NCBI GenBank assembly: GCA_004296925.1
Contig: SCVI01000069.1
Coordinates: 1 to 43,603 of the forward strand
Source of the DNA: Patescibacteria group bacterium
GTDB lineage: Bacteria; Patescibacteriota; Minisyncoccia; Phycocordibacterales; Phycocordibacteraceae
Length of the DNA stretch: 43,603 bases
Reading direction: 5' to 3'
Both the position numbers and the translations under genes were made by a program. Every line of letters starts with the position of its first letter. Positions within the stretch are counted from its first letter, which is position 1. The notes below the pieces were generated by a model. The model was not told where the DNA came from, ran no database searches, and saw nothing but the letters and a program-made list of their open reading frames with translations. Positions 1 through 10,279 of the stretch are shown here, in pieces.

Positions 1-127
1 GACAAATCCGCGCGCTTCGGCGCGCCCATCCCGTCCCAATTCGTCGCTACGCGACGGACTGTTTTTCCACTTTCTTCTTCTCGCGCGCCTTCGGCACGCT
101 TGTTGTGTCGAGACGAAGTCTCGTTTT
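1..127. other. GC-rich cluster of short stem-loops, unassigned structured element
   Basis: Hairpins gcgcgc-TTCG-gcgcgc (10-25), cgtcgc-TAC-gcgacg (42-56), an imperfect gcgcgcc-TTC-ggcacgc (83-99) and cgagac-GAA-gtctcg (109-123). No ORF. Much GC-richer than the adjacent 140-4600 segment. Confidence 0.35.
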
Positions 128-322
128 GTGACCCTAACGATACAGAACTCAAAACCGCTAGTTGAACATTTGAAGGCAATCAGCAATATAGCGGGAAAGT
201 TCAAAACTCTCCAAAACAAGCCTATTTGGAGCATGGCTCAGAGCAAAGAACTCATCCCCTAATGAAGTTAAAACCTATCAGACATGCTTGATTAGTTGAT
301 TTTCTATCATTTTATACAAAAA

Positions 323-634
323 ATGACTGTAAAACAAAATGGAGGGAGAAGACTTGGAGCTGGAAGAAAGAAAGCACAGCATACTATTGCTACAGAAAAG
401 GCTCGTGAATATTTGATAAAAGAGATAGCAAAAAATCTTGAACCAATAATTACTGCTCAAATTGAAGCAGCAAAAGGAATTTCACATATAGGAAAACAAG
501 GAAGAATATATACTGAACTTCCAAATACAAAGGTTGGAGAATATCTACTGAACCAAGTAGCAGGTAAAGCGGCAATGAGTGTTGAAGTACAAGGAAAAGA
601 AGAACAGCCATTTATTATCGTAATAGACACTTAA
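323..634 (+). CDS. Small basic protein of the island, possible DNA-binding protein
   Basis: ORF track 296..634. The internal ATG at 323 gives MTVKQNGGRRLGAGRKK..., a basic Gly/Arg N-terminus typical of small phage or plasmid DNA-binding proteins. No specific family recognised. Confidence 0.4.
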   Translation: MTVKQNGGRRLGAGRKKAQHTIATEKAREYLIKEIAKNLEPIITAQIEAAKGISHIGKQGRIYTELPNTKVGEYLLNQVAGKAAMSVEVQGKEEQPFIIVIDT

Positions 635-654: not shown

Positions 655-2856
655 CTATTGAAAGTGTTCTACAGCAATACTTAGAGGGGGGCTCATATCA
701 CGGATACCTTTAGGAAGATGCATATTTACAAAATTAGTCACGTTTGTTGCTTTCCGTTTTCTCCCAGCTTTATTGATATGAATTACAGGATTTCGTTTTA
801 TTGCTGTTGTATTGCTATGAAAATTAATTACTAAAATATTCGGATTTGATTTAAGCTCTGCAAGCTCTTTTTCACTTATGCTGCTCAATGGTACATCCTT
901 TAGGATTAGCAACTGCTTGGTAGAACCCGTTGCATACAGCAGTCCATTTGGCTTATTGGCAAATTTTGTATCCCAACTTTTTATTACGAATGTGGAAGTA
1001 GAAGTATTATCTAAAGCTGTTTTTTTTGTAGAAATATCTTTTTCATCCAAAGCAACCTCTACTGCCCTCTGAAATACCTCAAACATCTTAAGGTTTACCT
1101 TCGCCACAATGTCTCCTATTTCACGTGCTGCTTCTCTCGTTTGCTCTGCTGTCGCATATAGACGCTCCTCTGGCTTGCTCAAATATTCATACAGTTCAAG
1201 GTGTTTGGTGTATACACTATGAAGATTTATACCGGAAAGATTTTCTCCATCTCTCTCGGAAGTAATCTCTTCATAATCATCAAGAAAAGAATTATCCTCA
1301 AATTTAGTGGGGAGGTCATCCAAATCGTTAGCAGTACGAATTAGCTGTTTCATTCCTTTTATAAATGTCTCATCTTCGGGAAAAAGTTGGTCAAATTTCT
1401 CTAATTCTCGATGCTGTCCTGTCCAAGAGTATCGTTCTAGTTGATCGGCTGAAATATCTAGCTTTTCACTTGGTGTTAAATCTTCTCCTTGAAGCACTCC
1501 CATTCTTGAAAGAAGTAGAACCAAATTCCTTACATGCTCAGAGTCATTAAGATTAATTGTAAACTCTCGTTTTATGTTGTTGTTTGCAAAGGCAAAAACT
1601 TCTGCTTGAAGATGCGAATTAGCTTGCCAAAAGAATTTTGGAATTTTTGAGTAGTATTTATAAAATCGATCAATATAATCATAAATTTTAGCTGCATCAG
1701 TATAGTGTTTATCAATTTTCTTAAGAGTTTCTGTATCTATATATTGTTTTCCCTCTGCATCAAATTCTGATAAGTCATTAAGTAAGTTCTTCAGGGTAAA
1801 GAAATCATTTGCGGATTTAAAGAGAAGAAATTTCTTTAGTTCTCCAGATTCTTCATTCTCTTGCTCTATTGTAAGAACTTTGTCCAAGTATAGATTCATC
1901 TCCTCGCTTGTTGGGGTAGGGAGATAATATACATGGGTAAAAAGCGTAGGGTATTTACTCTCAATACGGCTTTGTTGTGTAAAAGCGTATGCTTTTTGAT
2001 TACAAATAAAAATAAAATGTGCAAATGACCGTCCAAAAAGATTTTTGTATTCTTTAATTGCATCTAGAGCTTCTTCGGCTTCATCTTTATCAAGCTCGTC
2101 AATTATAAAGACAATTTTCTTTCCATCTCTTTTACTTTCTAGCCATTGTTCAAACTTGGTTTCTAAATATTCTGGTGAATCATCAATACTATAACTGTCT
2201 TGGTTTTTAAAAGTGTTTTCAAAAATCTTCTCCCAGCTCCATTCAAATTTAAATCCAAGAGAAAAAGGTAAAGATAATACTCCGATTAGTCCTAGTAATT
2301 TAAGCCAAATACTTTCAAAAAATATACCCAATGTTCCAAATAATATGCCACCTATGACAAGACCAAGGCGTGCAAAGTTCCCTTCAATATTCTGAGTGAA
2401 TTGGGCAAGAATATTTTTCTTCGTTTTGTTGCTTGAAGCATTTAATAGCTCACTTGATTTTTTAAATTGCCCTATACTTTGATAATAGAGCTTTTCTATA
2501 TCAACGTCTTTTGCGAACTGTTCTGTTAAAAAGCTCGCTCTGATAAGGGAGGTTAAAAACGCCTTCCCGATTAAATCCTTTTCCTTCGATGCATCACGCA
2601 ATGTGTGTCCTACATTTACAAAAATAGGAATGATTTCATTACGAATTTCTGAAAGAGCTCTATGAACAAAAGTAGTTTTCCCAACACCTCTTACCGCAGA
2701 TACCAAAATTGTACTGGAAGTATTATTGGATATGGCATGCTTTAAGCTATTGACTTCCTTAACTCTACCTATAAAAACATGCTCATTTCTGTCTTTGCCG
2801 AAACCAAATTGTTCTGACCAATGGTCTCGAAAATAGAGTTTCATATTGCCTAACAA
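655..2856 (-). CDS. P-loop NTPase with transmembrane insertion (KAP-like / AAA_16-like), large helical C-terminal domain
   Basis: 733 aa. FIGRxxE...SAVRGVGKTT forms Walker A. Two hydrophobic helices (LGLVIGGILFGTLGIFF and LLGLIGVLSLPFSLGF) follow, then KIVFIIDELDK forms Walker B and FIFICNQ resembles sensor 1. Membrane helices between Walker A and B are the hallmark of KAP-family NTPases. Confidence 0.7.
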   Translation of the reverse strand: MLGNMKLYFRDHWSEQFGFGKDRNEHVFIGRVKEVNSLKHAISNNTSSTILVSAVRGVGKTTFVHRALSEIRNEIIPIFVNVGHTLRDASKEKDLIGKAFLTSLIRASFLTEQFAKDVDIEKLYYQSIGQFKKSSELLNASSNKTKKNILAQFTQNIEGNFARLGLVIGGILFGTLGIFFESIWLKLLGLIGVLSLPFSLGFKFEWSWEKIFENTFKNQDSYSIDDSPEYLETKFEQWLESKRDGKKIVFIIDELDKDEAEEALDAIKEYKNLFGRSFAHFIFICNQKAYAFTQQSRIESKYPTLFTHVYYLPTPTSEEMNLYLDKVLTIEQENEESGELKKFLLFKSANDFFTLKNLLNDLSEFDAEGKQYIDTETLKKIDKHYTDAAKIYDYIDRFYKYYSKIPKFFWQANSHLQAEVFAFANNNIKREFTINLNDSEHVRNLVLLLSRMGVLQGEDLTPSEKLDISADQLERYSWTGQHRELEKFDQLFPEDETFIKGMKQLIRTANDLDDLPTKFEDNSFLDDYEEITSERDGENLSGINLHSVYTKHLELYEYLSKPEERLYATAEQTREAAREIGDIVAKVNLKMFEVFQRAVEVALDEKDISTKKTALDNTSTSTFVIKSWDTKFANKPNGLLYATGSTKQLLILKDVPLSSISEKELAELKSNPNILVINFHSNTTAIKRNPVIHINKAGRKRKATNVTNFVNMHLPKGIRDMSPPLSIAVEHFQ

Positions 2857-2898
2857 TATGCCCTTAAAAGGGAACCTGCAAGGCGATTATTGCTTATT

Positions 2899-3555
2899 TT
2901 AACTACTCAGACAGTTTTGGTATTCATCATTCAGCAAGACATTTATTTTATCTATTGCTTGTTGTTTGCTCGCCTCAATTTCTTTCTTTTGATTTCCCCA
3001 AAAAGCCTGTTGGTTATTGTAGGCTTCATTCGCTAGTTGCGACGCATTGTAATTATATTGTGAGGTGAGATTAGCTTTTTGAACACCAGTCATCATGGGA
3101 TCTATGGCAGATATCTGAATACTCGCATTACTGTAAATCTTGCTTACTGCATCGTTGTATTGTTGTTGTAGAGCAGCAAATACTTCTTGAAGCTTTTTAT
3201 CTACAGTTGCGTTAAGTTTTTGAATGGAACTATCGTAGGAAGTTTGTTTATCCGCTTTACATTTTTCAATCTTTAAATTTATACTTTCTTGAATACTTAT
3301 TACTGGTTCAGCAACTTTTGCTTCTTGTTGAGGAATCTTTTTTGTTGATTTAGAAACATCCCCAACCTGTTTCTTTTCTTCCTCGATTGGAGCAGCACTT
3401 TCTGATTGAGGAGTTGATATTTGTTCTGCCTGTTGTGATTTTTGTTTCTCGTCAAAATACTTAATCCCGAAATATCCGGCTGTAGCTGTTGTACAGAGAA
3501 GGGCTACTATACCTATCAAAAGAGGTATTTGTATGAATCCTTTTTTCATATGCAT
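2899..3555 (-). CDS. Membrane-anchored coiled-coil protein, Q/N/K/S-rich ectodomain
   Basis: ORF track 2899..3657. The likely start is MHMKKGFIQIPLLIGIVALLCTTATAGYFGI (ATG at 3555 or 3549), because the upstream extension overlaps a 10-bp hairpin. One N-terminal TM helix is followed by a long low-complexity helical region. It lies 42 nt downstream of the NTPase on the same strand. Confidence 0.55.
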   Translation of the reverse strand: MHMKKGFIQIPLLIGIVALLCTTATAGYFGIKYFDEKQKSQQAEQISTPQSESAAPIEEEKKQVGDVSKSTKKIPQQEAKVAEPVISIQESINLKIEKCKADKQTSYDSSIQKLNATVDKKLQEVFAALQQQYNDAVSKIYSNASIQISAIDPMMTGVQKANLTSQYNYNASQLANEAYNNQQAFWGNQKKEIEASKQQAIDKINVLLNDEYQNCLSS

Positions 3556-3654
3556 TAGTCCAGTTAATGCTTTTTGATAAATTTGATAATGACCAACACA
3601 AAACCCGCCACTAAGCTGGGAGGCTTGCGCCTCTGTCAGGGTTTCCCCTGACAA

Positions 3655-3743
3655 CACTGGACATGCCCAAACCTAATGACGGGGTCTGTATGTCCAGTGC
3701 TTTGCTGCCATGCCTAGAGTTTTAAGGCTCTAAGTTTAGGCAT
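3655..3743. repeat. Structured element copy 1
   Basis: A 10-bp stem, CACTGGACAT (3655-3664) with ATGTCCAGTG (3690-3699), encloses the loop motif CCTAATGACGGGGTCTGT. A second stem follows: ATGCCTA (3710-3716) with TAGGCAT (3737-3743). Confidence 0.5.
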
Positions 3744-4600: not shown

Positions 4601-6145
4601 ATGAAAAAATTAACTGTTCTTAATCGCCCTAAAACAGCAATCATTTACACAAGGGTATCTTCCGATGAACAGGTGCAAGGGTATAGCCTTGATGACCAAG
4701 AAAGAATTTGCAAAGATTATTGCAAACGCAATAAGCTTGAACCCTTAAAGGTATTTAGGGAAGAAGGTGAATCGGCAAAATCTCTTGATCGGACGCAGAT
4801 GACATTAATGATGGAATATTGCATGCGCAATGTAGGAAAGGTCGGCTTTATTGTCGTGTACAGAACAGACAGGTTCTCTCGCAACGCCACAGACCATATC
4901 GTTCAAAGAAAGGCGTTCAGAGATTATGGTGTTGAATTAAGATCGGCTGTTGAGCCAATTGATGAGACTTCGCATGGAAAATTCTTTGAACACATGCTCG
5001 CTGGTCTGAATAATCTTGATAACGACATGAGGACGGAAAGAACTGTCACGGGGATGCGTTCCAAGGCTCTTGATGGTTATTGGTCTTGGGGCGCTCCTTG
5101 GGGGTATAGAAATATAACTGATGTGACAGGAAGGCGTGTCATTGAACCACATCCTCAAAGAGCACCGATTGTGAAATTTCTCTTTGAGGAATATTCAAGA
5201 GGAACCAGAACATTCCGTGAACTTGCAGCAGAAGTTAATGAAATGGGAGACCTGCGTAGCAAGCATGGCTTAAAGATGAGTCATCAGTTAGTGCAAAAAA
5301 TTCTTACCAACCCAATTCATTGCGGAAAAATTGATGTTCCAACTTGGGGAATAGCTACTGAAGGAAAGCATGAGCCTATTGTTTCAGTTGAACTCTTTGA
5401 GGAAGTTCAAAATGTTATGCGAGGTGGCAACTCAAGAACGCAACCGCGAAATATAAATAACCCTGATTTTCCACTCAGAGGAGTTGAATGTTTGTGCGGT
5501 ACCCATATCTCCGGAGGATATGTAACAGGTCGGAGTAAGCGTTATGGATATTACGGTTGTACAAATACAAAGTGTCCCTACAAAAAAGCAATACCAAAGC
5601 AAAAACTAGAAGATAGCTTCACCGAGTTTCTACAGAGATACACGCCAGAAACCAATCTAATGGAGGCTCTTGCGGAAGCTCTAAAGATTGTTCATAGGAA
5701 GCAGAAAAGGCAGAATACCCAACAGACACAAAAGCTTAAACAGAAAATTGAGAAACTAGAAAGGGAGCTAGAGGATTTGCTACAACTGCGGCTTGAGCAA
5801 ACTATAGACAACAGAGATTTTCTTGTTGAAACAGACAAGAGAAAGATTCTGAAGAGAGAAATAGAGGTTGCCTTACAGAATCTGCAGACAAGCAATGCCG
5901 ATGAAGAGTCAGCAATAGATTTCGGCATCAAGCTCATTGAGCAACTGCCACTTCTCTGGAAAGAACTAGAGCCAGCTGAACTGAGGCTCTTGAGAAACTC
6001 TCTCTTTCCTAAAAACATTCAATACACCGATGCTGGTTTTAAAACCGCTGAATTATCACCAATTTACAAGGTAAAAGCCGCATCTGGAACAGATGAAAAT
6101 CGTTTGGTGACCCCACGGGGAATCGAACCCCGGTTCCAAGCTTGA
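4601..6145 (+). CDS. Large serine recombinase (resolvase/invertase N-domain, recombinase domain, zinc ribbon, coiled coil)
   Basis: 514 aa. AIIYTRVSSDEQ is the catalytic-serine motif. VVYRTDRFSRN is present. The Cys cluster is CLCGTH...YYGCTNTKCPYK. A long charged coiled-coil follows (QKLKQKIEKLERELEDLLQL). The last 41 nt run antisense through tRNA-Glu. Confidence 0.9.
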   Translation: MKKLTVLNRPKTAIIYTRVSSDEQVQGYSLDDQERICKDYCKRNKLEPLKVFREEGESAKSLDRTQMTLMMEYCMRNVGKVGFIVVYRTDRFSRNATDHIVQRKAFRDYGVELRSAVEPIDETSHGKFFEHMLAGLNNLDNDMRTERTVTGMRSKALDGYWSWGAPWGYRNITDVTGRRVIEPHPQRAPIVKFLFEEYSRGTRTFRELAAEVNEMGDLRSKHGLKMSHQLVQKILTNPIHCGKIDVPTWGIATEGKHEPIVSVELFEEVQNVMRGGNSRTQPRNINNPDFPLRGVECLCGTHISGGYVTGRSKRYGYYGCTNTKCPYKKAIPKQKLEDSFTEFLQRYTPETNLMEALAEALKIVHRKQKRQNTQQTQKLKQKIEKLERELEDLLQLRLEQTIDNRDFLVETDKRKILKREIEVALQNLQTSNADEESAIDFGIKLIEQLPLLWKELEPAELRLLRNSLFPKNIQYTDAGFKTAELSPIYKVKAASGTDENRLVTPRGIEPRFQA

Positions 6146-6179
6146 AAAGCTTGTGTCCTAACCGTTAGACGATGGGGCC
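6105..6179 (-). tRNA. tRNA-Glu (anticodon UUC), CCA encoded
   Basis: The reverse complement folds as GGCCCCA / D-arm / CAAGC-TTTTCAA-GCTTG / CGGGG-TTCGATT-CCCCG / TGGGGTC-A-CCA. Confidence 0.9.
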
Positions 6180-6355: not shown

Positions 6356-6518
6356 AATGGAGAGGTGGCTGAGTGGAGGAAATAAGAACTACTTCTTATT
6401 TCCTCCGATTCCGTTTCGGAAAAAACTTTCTGTCTCATTTTATGAGAAAAAGTTTAGGAGGACGAACTTGTTCGAACACTCAGCCTCCTATATCCTTAGA
6501 TTTCGTCACTAGTGTGAC
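6356..6518 (+). repeat. tRNA-Ser 5'-flank module
   Basis: The 21-nt repeat AATGGAGAGGTGGCTGAGTGG occurs at 6356-6376 and 6519-6539. The spacer has hairpins (AGGAAATAAGAA-CTAC-TTCTTATTTCCT, TTCCG-TTT-CGGAA, TCTCAT-TTT-ATGAGA). CACTCAGCC (6477-6485) is antisense to GGCTGAGTG of the repeat. The spacer ends in GTGAC. Confidence 0.6.
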
Positions 6519-6521
6519 AAT

Positions 6522-6608
6522 GGAGAGGTGGCTGAGTGGTCGAAGGCACCACACTCGAAATGTGGCGTACGGGAAACTGTACCGAGAGTTCGAATCTCTC
6601 CCTCTCCG
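6522..6608 (+). tRNA. tRNA-Ser (anticodon CGA), long variable arm, no encoded CCA
   Basis: GGAGAGG acceptor, anticodon loop CTCGAAA, variable arm CGTACGGGAAACTGTAC, T-arm GAGAG-TTCGAAT-CTCTC, 3' strand CCTCTCC-G. Confidence 0.9.
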
Positions 6609-6790
6609 CACCTGATATAAAGATGCCCCGTGAGGGGTTTTCTTTATATCAGGAGGACGAGATTCGAAAACCGGAGCACGAAGGGCGAGGTCGGGCTGGC
6701 GCACTCGACGCATCGTCGCGCCGTAGGGCGTAAGTGAGAACCGGTGTCAAAATGCTTAGTGACGGGAGCCGAATCTCTCCATCTCCGCCA
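6609..6790 (+). repeat. tRNA-Ser 3'-flank module
   Basis: A long hairpin lies at 6611-6653. The antisense T segment GAGATTCGAA lies at 6659-6668, followed by AACCGGAGC, GC-rich hairpins and a terminal GTGAC. The copy CGAATCTCTCCaTCTCCGC at 6770-6788 matches 6591-6609 at 18 of 19 positions and ends in CCA. Confidence 0.6.
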
Positions 6791-6842: not shown

Positions 6843-7811
6843 GTGGAAATTTTTATTGCACTCGCAATCCTAGTTGCAGGTCTTGGAATCCTTATTTATG
6901 GAGCGGATACCTTGGTTAAGGGTGCATCATCTCTCGCATCAAGACTCGGAGTATCTGCACTCGCTGTAGGGCTCACGGTCGTCGCTTTCGGTACCTCAAC
7001 ACCAGAGTTGACTGTCAACATGTATGCAGCACTCACTGGGGCTACTGACCTTGCTGTTGGAAACGTTGTCGGATCAAACGTCGCTAACATTTTGTTAATT
7101 TTGGGTATTACAGCAATTATCACTCCACTCGCTGTGAAGAGTTCAACGGTATGGAAAGAGATGCCATTCGCACTTTTGGGAGGAATTCTTTTGCTCGTAT
7201 TAGGTGCGGACACACTCATTAGTGGTGCTGGTCCAGACATACTGACACGAGGTGAGGGTATTGCACTCTTGGGAGTTTTCGCAATTTTCATGTATTACGT
7301 TGTTGGTCTTGCAAAGCAAAACCCAACCGAAAACGAGGAAGACGTTCACGTGTATTCTACTTTGCGCTCCGTTGTCTATATCGTTCTAGGGCTCGCAGGG
7401 TTGATATTAGGCGGAAAGTTGTTGGTGGATCAAGCAGTATTTTTGGCCGGACTCTTTGGACTCTCTGAGACAGTTATTGGGCTCACCGTTGTTGCTGTCG
7501 GCACATCACTCCCTGAGCTCGCAACGTCAATAATTGCTGCACGTCGAGGACAACACGATATTGCGGTAGGTAACATTATTGGTTCAAACATCTTTAATAT
7601 CTTTTGGATATTAGGGCTCACTGCACTTATTACGCCAATACCAACTCCAACATCTTTTGTGGCCGATATTTCGTTTGAACTCGTTGTATCCACAATACTA
7701 TTCATCATTATGTTTGTTGGTCGGCGACACACCATCGACCGTTGGCAGGGGTGGGCGTTTCTTGGACTATACATTGCCTACATCACGTACCTGTTAACGT
7801 TGGCTAAATAA
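6843..7811 (+). CDS. Ca2+/Na+ antiporter, CaCA (YrbG-like) family
   Basis: 322 aa, multi-pass, with two alpha-repeat motifs (GTSTPELTV and GTSLPELATS). GTG start. Confidence 0.8.
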   Translation: MEIFIALAILVAGLGILIYGADTLVKGASSLASRLGVSALAVGLTVVAFGTSTPELTVNMYAALTGATDLAVGNVVGSNVANILLILGITAIITPLAVKSSTVWKEMPFALLGGILLLVLGADTLISGAGPDILTRGEGIALLGVFAIFMYYVVGLAKQNPTENEEDVHVYSTLRSVVYIVLGLAGLILGGKLLVDQAVFLAGLFGLSETVIGLTVVAVGTSLPELATSIIAARRGQHDIAVGNIIGSNIFNIFWILGLTALITPIPTPTSFVADISFELVVSTILFIIMFVGRRHTIDRWQGWAFLGLYIAYITYLLTLAK

Positions 7812-7837: not shown

Positions 7838-8410
7838 GTGAAAGAAACATTTGCAGTTGTTGCGGCACTTCTCGCTATTGTTGGCAACCTCCCGTACCTC
7901 ATAGACATTGTGAAGGGGAGGGTAAAACCACATCCTTATACGTGGCTAGTTTGGACGATTGTTTCTTTTATTATTTTCTTTGGGCAGGTGGCTAAAGGTG
8001 CAGGTATTGGCGCACTTCCAACAGCGGCGTCTGAAATATTTACTATAATCATTTTCATTTTCTCACTGAAATACGGATTCAAAGGAATAACTAAAACCGA
8101 CACAATTTTTTTGGTAGTTGCACTTCTAGGTATCATTCCGTGGATACTGACTAAGGACCCTACGCTTTCGGTGATATTTGCCGTTTCAATTGATTTAATT
8201 GCCTTTATACCAACCCTTGGTAAGACATGGCGGTATCCTAAAACCGAGACACCTATTTTATACAGCATGAATGTTCTGCGTCATATTTTGGCTCTTTTCT
8301 CACTCCAGGCATATAACATAGCTACTACGCTTCATTCGATAGCAATGATTATCGTAAACTCTATAATGACCGTAATGATTGTATTTAAGAAAACAAAAAG
8401 ACGAATATGA
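7838..8410 (+). CDS. Hypothetical multi-pass membrane protein
   Basis: 190 aa with about 6 hydrophobic segments. GTG start. No family recognised. Confidence 0.5.
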   Translation: MKETFAVVAALLAIVGNLPYLIDIVKGRVKPHPYTWLVWTIVSFIIFFGQVAKGAGIGALPTAASEIFTIIIFIFSLKYGFKGITKTDTIFLVVALLGIIPWILTKDPTLSVIFAVSIDLIAFIPTLGKTWRYPKTETPILYSMNVLRHILALFSLQAYNIATTLHSIAMIIVNSIMTVMIVFKKTKRRI

Positions 8411-9015
8411 AGTCACTTGAAGAAGCCTTACGACATCTTAAAAAAGATGAGCAATTCAAAGTAGTTATTAAAAACTACCCTGCGCCAGTGTTTAAGAAGA
8501 CACGTAACGTATACGGGGCGCTGATTCGATCAATCGTGTATCAGCAACTCTCTGGTAAAGTGGCTGGGACTATTTTGAAAAGGTTTCTTGATTTGTTTGA
8601 AGGCCCAAGCTACCCAAAGCCAGAGGAACTATTAAAAGTGAATACTGCAACATTAAGGGAAGTGGGGCTCTCTGGACAAAAGGTATCGTACATACAAGAT
8701 TTATCTACAAAATTTTTGGATGGCACCATTCAACCAAAAAAATTCAAAGGAATGAGTGACGAAGAAATACGTGAACATTTAATAGCCATAAAGGGAATTG
8801 GGCGATGGAGTGCTGATATGTTTTTAATGTCTTCGCTCCACAGACCTGATGTATTACCTACAGGAGACTTAGGAATACAAAAAGGTTTTAAGAAATTATT
8901 TGCACTAAAAACACTGCCAAGTGTTACGCAAATGGAGCGCCTCGCTAAGCCATGGCAGCCCTATAGAACTGTCGCGTCTATGTATCTTTGGCGAATTGCG
9001 GATGAGGATAAATAG
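8407..9015 (+). CDS. DNA-3-methyladenine glycosylase II-like (HhH-GPD, AlkA family)
   Basis: 202 aa. Contains IKGIGRWSADMFLM (helix-hairpin-helix) and the downstream PTGDLG motif typical of AlkA-type glycosylases. Confidence 0.7.
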   Translation: MKSLEEALRHLKKDEQFKVVIKNYPAPVFKKTRNVYGALIRSIVYQQLSGKVAGTILKRFLDLFEGPSYPKPEELLKVNTATLREVGLSGQKVSYIQDLSTKFLDGTIQPKKFKGMSDEEIREHLIAIKGIGRWSADMFLMSSLHRPDVLPTGDLGIQKGFKKLFALKTLPSVTQMERLAKPWQPYRTVASMYLWRIADEDK

Positions 9016-9022
9016 ATAGTGG

Positions 9023-10279
9023 CTATGTTCCTTCTTGCCAGCTTGAGAGGTAGTGTTTCTGCTCTTCAGTAAGAGTATCTACTTGAATACCCATTGAGGC
9101 TAGTTTTAGGTTTGCTACACGGTTTTCAATTGCTTCGTCAATTTCGTACACACCAGGCTTTAGTGAATCTTTATGTTCAACTACCCATGAAGAAGCGAGT
9201 GCTTGTGTTGCAAAACTCATGTCCATTACAGACGCAGGGTGTCCTTCTGCAGCAGCGAGATTAACTAAACGTCCTTCACCTATAACGTAAAGTCTTTTGC
9301 CGTTTAAAAGAAATTCATCCACGTGTTTTCGAACATCTTTTGTCACCCTCTCAGCCATTTGTTCAAGTGCTTTAAGATTTATTTCAACGTCGAAGTGACC
9401 TGAGTTACAAAGGATTGCTCCGTCTTTCATTAATGGGAAATGCGCCTTATCAATAACATTGATATCGCCAGTCAAGGTGCAGAAAATATCACCAATCAAC
9501 GCAGCGTCTTTCATTGGCATAACTTCAAAGCCATCCATCACTGCCTCCAATGCCTTAATAGAATCCACTTCGGTAACAATGGTACGAGCTCCCATACCAC
9601 GAGCACGCATCGCAAATCCTCGGCCACACCAGCCGTACCCACCAACCACAACCACCTTGCCTGCAATGAGTGAGTCTGTTGCGCGTATAATTCCGTCGAG
9701 TGTTGATTGTCCTGTACCGTATCGGTTATCGAAAAGATTCTTGGTTTTTGCATCGTTTACTGCAACAACCGGGATTTTTAAGGCGCCATCTTTTGCCATG
9801 GCACGAAGTCGTATAACACCAGTAGTAGTTTCTTCCATGCTTCCCATAATTTGAGACGTAAGTTCGGGATGCTTTTGATGTATGACCGTAATGAGGTCAG
9901 CGCCATCGTCCATAGTGATAACTGGTTTATGAGCGATAGCCGATTCGATGTGTGAAAAAAAAGTTTCTTTGCTTTCGCCTCGGATTGCGTAGACTTGTAT
10001 ACCGTAATCTTGTACCAAGCTCGCCGCAACATCGTCTTGAGTAGAGAGGGGATTTGATGCAACCAAAAGAACGTTACCGCCACCTGCTTTTAGGGTTCGC
10101 ATTAAGTTTGCGGTTTCTGCGGTCACATGAAGACACGCTGAAAAATTCATATCTTTAAATGGGAGTGTTTTTTCAAATTGTGCACGCACGTCGCGCAACA
10201 CTGGCATATCTCTCTCAGCCCATTCAATTCGCTTCTTTCCTTGAGGTGCAAGGCTAATGTCTTTAATATCGTAATTCAT
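9023..10279 (-). CDS. ahcY: Adenosylhomocysteinase
   Basis: 418 aa. The N-terminus [26 protein letters not shown] and the NAD-binding GYGWCGRG are characteristic. Confidence 0.9.

Follow-up and report, generated by a model that had tools for sequence, protein, structure and literature searches.

A KAP-family NTPase with an internal membrane hairpin as a probable single-gene defence protein on a small tRNA-integrated island of a Patescibacteria group bacterium

KAP NTPases that carry C-terminal regions of unknown function were reported to give up to six logs of protection to E. faecalis (PMC13552941, 2026). These proteins were found through their linkage to serine recombinases, their protection needs both the Walker B motif and the C-terminal region, and the C-terminal regions of such defence proteins are diverse; one of them, EF_KAP, gave equal protection at a multiplicity of infection (MOI) of 1 and of 10 and was judged not to be abortive (PMC13552941). 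Here we analysed a KAP-family NTPase gene at positions 655-2844 (minus strand) of contig SCVI01000069.1 (assembly GCA_004296925.1, Patescibacteria group bacterium), where the window denotes the whole 43,603-nucleotide (nt) stretch under analysis. With moderate confidence, we consider its product of 729 amino acids (aa) to be a stand-alone, membrane-tethered, single-gene defence protein directed against phages or mobile elements.

PifA of the F plasmid, the founding bacterial KAP NTPase, excludes phage T7 according to passages in PMC13552941 and PMC13001434, and the passage in PMC13001434 describes membrane depolarisation and nucleotide leakage. Tmn, of the YobI family, has two transmembrane (TM) helices inside its P-loop domain; it assembles as a decameric hub in the membrane, where it exports Mg2+ and consumes ATP (PMC13001434). 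QatA of the Qat system is also a KAP NTPase; it carries an unknown C-terminal domain, binds DNA and assembles into heptamers or octamers (PMC13279940).

Sequence and predicted fold of the NTPase

Homologues of the NTPase were collected among 5.8 billion protein clusters, which gave a full-length family of 22 proteins (713-734 aa, 33-71% identity); residue numbers below are those of the 729-aa product, and conservation is stated for the alignment of these 22 sequences. The longest reading of the gene covers positions 655-2856 (minus strand) and begins at a TTG, which gives the 733-aa protein named in an earlier reading of the DNA made from its letters (the sequence-only reading). This open reading frame (ORF) exists, but the real product is 729 aa long, starting at the ATG at 2844 and ending with the stop codon at 655-657, because all 21 homologues begin at that ATG (MKxYL) and the DNA similarity to the closest loci stops there.

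The Pfam family KAP_NTPase (PF07693) matched residues 36-355 (profile positions 6-258 of 293) with 26.6 bits against a gathering score of 20, and it matched 20 of the 22 family members, the best with an E-value of 6.5e-13. Matches to AAA_16, ATPase_2 and AAA_22 were sub-threshold, the PHROG scan returned clamp-loader-like ATPase matches only, and PADLOC and NCBIfam gave no significant family either for the NTPase or for the small membrane protein encoded beside it (see below). Walker A (AVRGVGKT, residues 50-57; positions 2674-2697, minus strand) is conserved in 22 of 22 members, and in Walker B (VFIIDELD, residues 245-252; positions 2089-2112, minus strand) D249, E250, L251 and D252 are invariant, so that the Walker G and K and the DELD are shared by all 22 sequences.

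Between the two motifs, hydropathy scans place a hydrophobic stretch of 40-45 residues in every member; in the window protein this is a predicted membrane hairpin at residues 156-200 (positions 2245-2379, minus strand). The AlphaFold2 model resolves it into two helices (residues 156-175 and 179-195) with a turn of ~3 residues and low-confidence linkers to the core. A pair of TM helices between the Walker motifs, which the sequence-only reading had proposed, is thereby borne out by hydropathy in 22 of 22 members and by the two modelled helices, and the KAP assignment, which it had also made, stands on the Pfam score above the gathering threshold together with the position of the hairpin. Aravind and colleagues reportedly described in 2004 a membrane-bound subset of KAP proteins with two or four TM helices inside the NTPase domain, and the window NTPase has this trait by both hydropathy and AlphaFold2.

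The AlphaFold2 model (mean predicted local distance difference test score (pLDDT) 80, predicted template-modelling score (pTM) 0.65) consists, in order, of a P-loop core, a helical lid with a winged-helix-like unit (residues ~313-480), a helical bundle (489-601) and an alpha/beta domain (606-729). The helical domain of about 400 aa expected from the letters corresponds in the model to this lid, winged-helix-like unit and bundle and to the C-terminal alpha/beta domain. In a Foldseek search against PDB the best matches were BrxC, archaeal and eukaryotic Orc1/Cdc6, and the heptameric RdrA of RADAR (E-values of 2.5e-4 to 8e-4), and these matches run through the ATPase, lid and winged-helix part. 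As to the AAA_16/ORC-like entry suggested earlier, AAA_16 stayed below the Pfam threshold, and Orc1/Cdc6 proteins are among the fold matches.

The C-terminal module (residues 478-729; positions 658-1413, minus strand) comprises the helical bundle and the alpha/beta domain and, modelled alone by AlphaFold2, reached a pLDDT of 91.8. No Pfam, NCBIfam, PHROG or PADLOC family beyond ATPase-domain matches was found over residues ~390-733 (in the numbering of the 733-aa ORF), and a profile search of PDB sequences with the module gave noise only. The alignment shows conservation of ANDLDD and of a basic loop, GRKRK, and in addition DG and NF are invariant. A profile of the module found 38 proteins among 1.84 billion representatives (about 38 clusters at 50% identity), and it sits almost always at the C-terminus of KAP or AAA_16-type NTPases of 700-806 aa. 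Ten distant or shorter matches were checked: five of 746-806 aa had a KAP_NTPase or AAA_16-type N-terminus, one of 602 aa had KAP_NTPase, and four of 385-504 aa had no Pfam match. Because the module occurs in 38 representatives, nearly all of them fused to that NTPase, we regard it as specific to the NTPase family.

An active PD-(D/E)xK nuclease in the C-terminal alpha/beta domain was considered and ruled out, as the alignment has no invariant D/E-x-K residues and no invariant acidic residue of any other kind there. The Foldseek lists of the module, whose entries are not significant, include the restriction-endonuclease folds EcoT38I, DdmD, SgrAI and AgeI and a RecB-family nuclease.

Homologue neighbourhoods and the function of the NTPase

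Full-length relatives are few and scattered. Among the species genomes of GTDB only three were found, one each in metagenome-assembled genomes (MAGs) of Saccharibacteria and Parcubacteria and one in a MAG labelled Gammaproteobacteria. Searched by tblastn, the plasmids of PLSDB and the phages of INPHARED gave no match to the NTPase, and viral contigs of IMG/VR held no family member, the matches there being to the Walker B region of other ATPases only.

The neighbour genes of the NTPase differ in every homologue locus examined (loci are cited by number, L001 onwards). The gene directly upstream encodes Abi_C in L001, an unannotated 166-aa protein in L006 and a fragment of a DNA methylase (N6_N4) in L016, and L008 has no upstream gene. 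In L003 the upstream gene encodes Peptidase_M23 and the NTPase homologue adjoins a MutH-like/Dcm/Vsr set and an HEPN_AbiU2 gene, and in L005 it encodes DUF4325, with SLFN_AlbA_2, Mrr_cat and RhuM genes around. The homologue of L009 stands between hsdM, its upstream gene, and hsdS in a type I restriction-modification operon. DUF2726 is encoded upstream in L010, where a Viral_Rep gene lies nearby, and the homologue is followed by Fic in L007 and by DUF559 in L015. L014, from the Saccharibacteria MAG, is an island with a large serine recombinase and Prim-Pol/AAA_25, in which the upstream gene encodes a 131-aa protein with four TM segments.

We take the NTPase to be a stand-alone gene because its neighbours differ in every locus and because L008 retains it without the small gene that stands beside it in the window. 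It travels by itself, turning up in the defence islands and the mobile islands of lineages far apart. The conflict or defence role suggested by the sequence-only reading remains the best reading, given neighbourhoods of restriction-modification, abortive infection (Abi), Schlafen/Mrr, Fic, methylase and recombinase genes and the precedent of PMC13552941.

In the mechanism that we propose, the hairpin would serve only as a tether, so that the NTPase domain, on either side of the hairpin, and everything C-terminal to it would stay in the cytoplasm. By binding and hydrolysing nucleotide the protein would assemble into a ring against the inner membrane face, in the way of its structural neighbours RdrA, BrxC and ORC and as reported for QatA. 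The C-terminal module would be the sensor or effector and would bind, at the membrane, either a phage protein or nucleic acid entering the cell, and phage development would be blocked.

The same hairpin, conserved in all members, could instead be the weapon. By this account infection would be abortive and the damage would come through the membrane: once phage is sensed, the hairpins in an oligomer would open a leak, as with PifA, or drive ion export and ATP collapse, as with Tmn, so that the infected cell is killed or arrested. PifA and Tmn do act at the membrane (PMC13001434), and a C-terminal module with no catalytic residues leaves the membrane and the ATPase as possible effectors. However, EF_KAP, the sole characterised protein that joins a KAP domain to an unknown region, was judged not abortive (PMC13552941), the short hairpin with its 3-residue turn and low-confidence linkers looks more like an anchor than a channel, and no YobI or Tmn model matches. 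We therefore hold killing through the membrane to be unlikely. Neither abortive infection nor exclusion, the patterns named in the sequence-only reading, gains support here.

That the NTPase serves the island itself, as an ORC/Cdc6-like initiator, a partition ATPase or a DNA-transfer ATPase, would fit the Orc1/Cdc6 fold matches, which cover the ATPase, lid and winged helix, as well as the presence of the gene in serine-recombinase islands of both the window and L014 and the Viral_Rep gene near the L010 homologue. Yet most homologues lie outside recognisable mobile elements (one in a type I restriction-modification operon, others in chromosomal variable regions), L014 already has its own Prim-Pol/AAA_25 replication gene, L008 keeps the NTPase after loss of the recombinase, no family member is present on IMG/VR viral contigs, and a membrane hairpin within the P-loop domain is a KAP trait and not an initiator trait. 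We judge such an island function to be very unlikely.

A role outside conflict, as an accessory signalling ATPase that regulates a membrane complex, goes back to the original KAP proposal of NTP-dependent regulation of membrane-associated complexes (as cited in passages of PMC13552941 and PMC13001434), and two contexts (locus L171 and the P0017 contig) are not defence-like. Against it stand the rarity of the family (about 38 clusters at 50% identity), its scatter over distant lineages with no conserved neighbour, and its repeated adjacency to restriction, Abi and mobile-element genes, and we give this role very little credence.

Several observations count against a single-gene defence protein and temper our confidence in it. 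The defence assignment of the family comes from context, two of the contexts, those of L171 and the P0017 contig, show no clear tie to defence, and the phage-defence biology of the Patescibacteria (candidate phyla radiation, CPR) is barely explored. PADLOC has no significant model for the family; its PDC-S27 model matches 3 of the 22 members, in the window protein over the Walker A region only. In a profile search of PDB sequences the NTPase family matched no solved structure at E <= 1, Foldseek searches with the last 252 residues, the C-terminal module, reached best E-values of 0.21 in PDB and 0.012 in BFVD, neither of them significant, and the alpha/beta part of the module lacks an invariant acidic residue in the alignment. 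That the NTPase oligomerises, that it faces the cytoplasm and that it has a ligand of the kind proposed are things we infer.

Apart from these considerations, DUF4325 (STAS-like) recurs beside NTPase homologues. In L005 it is the 97-aa protein encoded directly upstream (7139-7432), and in L009 a protein with HATPase_c_2 and a faint DUF4325 match is encoded two genes downstream of the homologue (8021-9076). The restriction-modification operon of L009 (1957-11420) is broken by the KAP homologue, an unannotated 358-aa protein and this HATPase/DUF4325 protein; the 358-aa gene overlaps the KAP homologue by 14 nt and could be a locus-specific partner of that NTPase homologue.

The island, the adjacent small protein and the LOOT RNA

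The NTPase gene lies on an island of 5.98 kb that is inserted at a tRNA-Glu gene and has its ends marked by a 14-bp imperfect direct repeat, TCGTTT(T/G)GTGACCC. The left border (121-134, TCGTTTTGTGACCC) holds one copy of the attachment (att) core and equals the right border (6100-6113, TCGTTTGGTGACCC) at 13 of 14 positions; the right copy overlaps the 3' end of the integration target, tRNA-Glu (UUC) at 6105-6179 (minus strand), which was called by ARAGORN and scored 63.8 bits with the Rfam tRNA model. A large serine recombinase of 514 aa is encoded at 4601-6145 (plus strand), with Pfam Resolvase and Recombinase matches, a PHROG integrase match at E 2e-84 and a zinc ribbon (Zn_ribbon_recom) below threshold (18.1 against 25.3). 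Its ORF crosses the att repeat, so that its last 11 codons and stop codon lie in tRNA-Glu DNA, ending ...VTPRGIEPRFQA. In the circle that excision would produce, the same ORF would run on into the other island end and encode 546 aa against 514 aa.

From left to right the island holds a 112-aa ORF (296-634, plus strand), which is convergent with the NTPase gene, then the NTPase gene, the small gene, a LOOT RNA, two short ORFs and the serine recombinase. No Pfam, NCBIfam or PADLOC match was found for the 112-aa ORF, and its PHROG match was weak (E 0.0037). On the contig of L008, whose NTPase is 70% identical, both element ends are kept (about 95-119 and 3229-3258, the latter matching the left border of the window island), the recombinase is reduced to a remnant of ~35 codons, the small gene is missing and the NTPase gene is retained. 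We conclude that the island ends are real and that the NTPase is the retained part, because L008 preserves both ends and the NTPase but not the recombinase or the small gene. By its gene content and borders the island is an integrative element of the kind that large serine recombinases mobilise and insert at tRNA genes, and it would presumably excise as such; no empty integration site was found for it. A recombinase-mobilised island with the NTPase as its main cargo, as the sequence-only reading had supposed, is thus upheld by the repeat, the tRNA-Glu gene and the serine recombinase.

The rest of the window is ordinary chromosome, with genes for GyrA, ClpB, IF-2, FtsZ and tRNAs. Beside the tRNA-Glu site, parts of the tRNA-Ser gene (6522-6609) recur: 26 nt of the 5' end are repeated 163 nt upstream (6356-6381 versus 6519-6544) and 19 nt of the 3' end 179 nt downstream (6591-6609 versus 6770-6788). 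Earlier integrations may have left these partial copies as scars. Adjoining the island border on its left, window positions 1-125 form a GC-rich (0.60) cluster of short hairpins (GCGCGCTTCGGCGCGC, TCGTCGCTACGCGACGGA, CGAGACGAAGTCTCG), for which no Rfam model reached its gathering score.

The small gene encodes a membrane protein of 218 aa (2899-3555, minus strand) with one N-terminal membrane segment by hydropathy. A longer reading of this ORF (2899-3657, 252 aa, GTG start) was set aside, and the protein was taken from the ATG at 3555, because the first 34 codons of the longer reading overlap the LOOT RNA and the homologues are 196-216 aa long. Its hydrophobic segment spans residues 3-31, and the remainder is a polar stretch in which Q, K, S, A, E and N abound; Q+N+K make up 29% of the protein. 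The single-pass, Q/N/K-rich coiled-coil protein described from the letters is therefore confirmed in its one segment and its composition but not in its coiled coil: in a crude heptad-periodicity test, 102 of 300 shuffles reached the observed score. The gene had also been called the next one downstream; on the minus strand it in fact lies upstream (5') of the NTPase gene, at a spacing of 42-54 nt. No Pfam, PHROG or PADLOC family was found for the protein. Two homologues only were found in the cluster search, with 54% and 47% identity, and a profile built from the small protein and these two matched nothing else at E <= 1 among the ORFs of the 76 LOOT loci surveyed below. Trypsin_2 proteins were considered as relatives and rejected, their matches (E about 6e-3, 29-37% coverage) not amounting to credible homology.

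The sequence-only reading had joined the two genes into a membrane NTPase with a membrane partner, and an obligate two-gene module, in which the single-pass protein would be the sensor or anchor of the NTPase, has several features in its favour at this locus. The genes share a strand and are separated by 42-54 nt in which no terminator-like site is seen, they are nearly equal in GC content (NTPase gene 0.347, small gene 0.353) and in GC content at third codon positions (GC3; 0.268 and 0.265), both unlike the recombinase (GC 0.416) and the host (GC 0.429 over the rest of the window), and both proteins are predicted to be membrane-bound. Five homologue loci (L003, L005, L008, L010 and L014) also have a membrane-anchored neighbour of the NTPase, unrelated to the small protein; however, such a neighbour in about 5 of 13 loci is, in our judgement, the background level. 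A tblastn search with the small protein found nothing in the 13 NTPase-homologue loci, including the three with the closest NTPases (70-71% identical), and in the contexts of L171 and P0017, for which called genes only were compared, the neighbours are others. Conversely, the two small-protein homologues are not followed by the NTPase: none lies within 433 nt after the homologue in L011, and in L012 the next gene is a 74-aa ORF. A small-protein homologue is likewise present in 0 of 76 LOOT loci, and if the small protein is oriented with its N-terminus inside, its bulk would lie outside the cell and only the membrane segments could touch an NTPase that is presumably cytoplasmic.

With no co-occurrence across 15 NTPase contexts or beside the two small-protein homologues, a conserved two-gene module is refuted by a condition that the sequence-only reading had itself named, the two genes not occurring together elsewhere, and an obligate pair is, in our estimate, highly improbable. 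The small protein is an independent cargo gene and not a conserved partner of the NTPase. In this island the two genes probably share a transcript that starts with the LOOT RNA; a promoter scan gave 11 sites against 14.1 expected.

The conserved linkage of the small gene is to the LOOT RNA upstream of it, not to the NTPase. In the window the Rfam model of this RNA (RF03000) aligns over its full length (positions 1-121 of 121) to 3620-3742 on the minus strand and scores 80.7 bits, the gathering score being 46.4; the small gene begins 64 nt further downstream on this strand. In L011 a LOOT copy cut by the contig end (1-63, plus strand) precedes the small-protein homologue, with compensatory changes in two hairpins, and in L014, from the Saccharibacteria MAG, a LOOT RNA (7208-7329, plus strand; 87.6 bits) precedes the gene with four TM segments and the NTPase homologue.

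A pattern scan of metagenome contigs gave 80 LOOT loci (L051-L130), about 74 of them genuine by eye, and neighbourhood counts were made on 76 LOOT loci. A serine recombinase is present in 27 of the 76, and an ORF starts at most 110 nt downstream on the same strand in 52 of the 70 that have a downstream ORF. The ORFs next to LOOT are very diverse (51 form 42 clusters) and include the Pfam families DUF2726, NucS_C, DUF559, YhcG nuclease (PDDEXK), Trypsin_2, G5 and zinc ribbons; an N-terminal hydrophobic segment occurs in 23 of 51 ORFs downstream of LOOT against 7 of 59 upstream neighbours. The NTPase itself is found among LOOT loci in the window and L014 only. LOOT thus looks like a backbone feature that heads the variable cargo slot of recombinase islands.

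Outside the islands, two IMG/VR contigs carry LOOT (L186, 3685-3809, plus strand; L187, 7961-8085, minus strand) directly upstream of a phage structural operon. Its genes encode an amidase, a major capsid protein of the SU10 type and a 641-aa protein whose weak match to P22_portal stays below the Pfam threshold, and a gene for a reverse transcriptase is also present near the operon. Because viral contigs carry LOOT before a structural operon, we take the RNA to be common to phages and islands. Within the RNA, base pairing is possible between the central hairpin's loop (CCCGUCAUCAGGG) and a 3' tail (CCUGGUGGCGGG) that is conserved and lies beyond the Rfam model (window about 3600-3680, minus strand). 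A loop-tail helix of at least 8 bp is possible in 40 of 68 LOOT sequences against 5 of 68 with shuffled tails, compensatory variants occur, and the pairing may form a pseudoknot.

A bolder account of the locus, which we regard as doubtful, would make the island one of an undescribed class of serine-recombinase elements of groundwater bacteria (probably Patescibacteria/CPR), in which LOOT stands at the head of a variable cargo slot. LOOT would in that case act as a phage-type leader, for example in antitermination or late activation, by which an infecting LOOT-using phage switches on cargo such as the KAP NTPase, so that defence genes would be expressed upon infection, in the manner of a satellite, and the C-terminal module would be a new effector fold.

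Significance and comparison with known systems

The NTPase most likely represents a rare family within the recently validated class of single-gene KAP defence proteins; the class is known, and the C-terminal fold, which has no significant structural neighbour, is new. The analysis adds to that class a well-delimited family of ~38 clusters, whose membrane hairpin is conserved and whose C-terminal module is modelled with confidence, and it extends the class to Saccharibacteria and Parcubacteria MAGs, in which defence biology is almost unknown. The gene rides a minimal 6-kb island that integrates at a tRNA gene, which makes it a compact construct. The NTPase and the small protein should not be propagated in annotation as a two-gene system. 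The orphan LOOT motif, for its part, gains a genomic setting in serine-recombinase islands and before a phage structural operon.

Compared with RdrA (RADAR), BrxC (BREX) and QatA, which are ring-forming ATPases from defence systems of several genes, the window NTPase is alike in its ORC/KAP-like ATPase part, and RdrA and BrxC are among its best structural neighbours. It differs in giving no significant PADLOC match and no sequence match to solved structures, and in having a membrane hairpin, which the literature consulted describes for none of the three; the partner genes RdrB, PglX/PglZ/BrxB and QatBCD were found neither in the window island nor in the 15 homologue contexts. With Tmn it shares a TM pair inside the P-loop domain and the single-gene arrangement, and the long cytosolic C-terminal part of Tmn is thought to sense phage proteins. 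The NTPase families differ, however, the window protein belonging to Pfam KAP_NTPase and matching no YobI-type or PADLOC Tmn model even at E <= 1, and the AlphaFold2 model shows no counterpart of Tmn's solenoid arm.

PifA is likewise a KAP NTPase on a mobile element, with a role in phage exclusion at the membrane according to the passages cited above. This likeness is one of description, and PifA is reported, in the passage concerned, to be without TM helices (PMC13001434); the plasmids of PLSDB, moreover, encode no relative of the window NTPase.

The closest likeness is to the EF_KAP class, and it is drawn from descriptions rather than from sequence comparison. The recombinase here is large (514 aa) and mobilises the island, whereas theirs is small; EF_KAP has one N-terminal TM helix and one inside the NTPase domain, in contrast to the two-helix hairpin inside the domain of the window family; and the hosts here are probably Patescibacteria, theirs Firmicutes. 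Both are encoded by a single gene linked to a serine recombinase, both have a KAP domain with a TM helix inside it and, at the C-terminus, 250-370 aa that resemble no known domain or structure, and they share a defence role by context.

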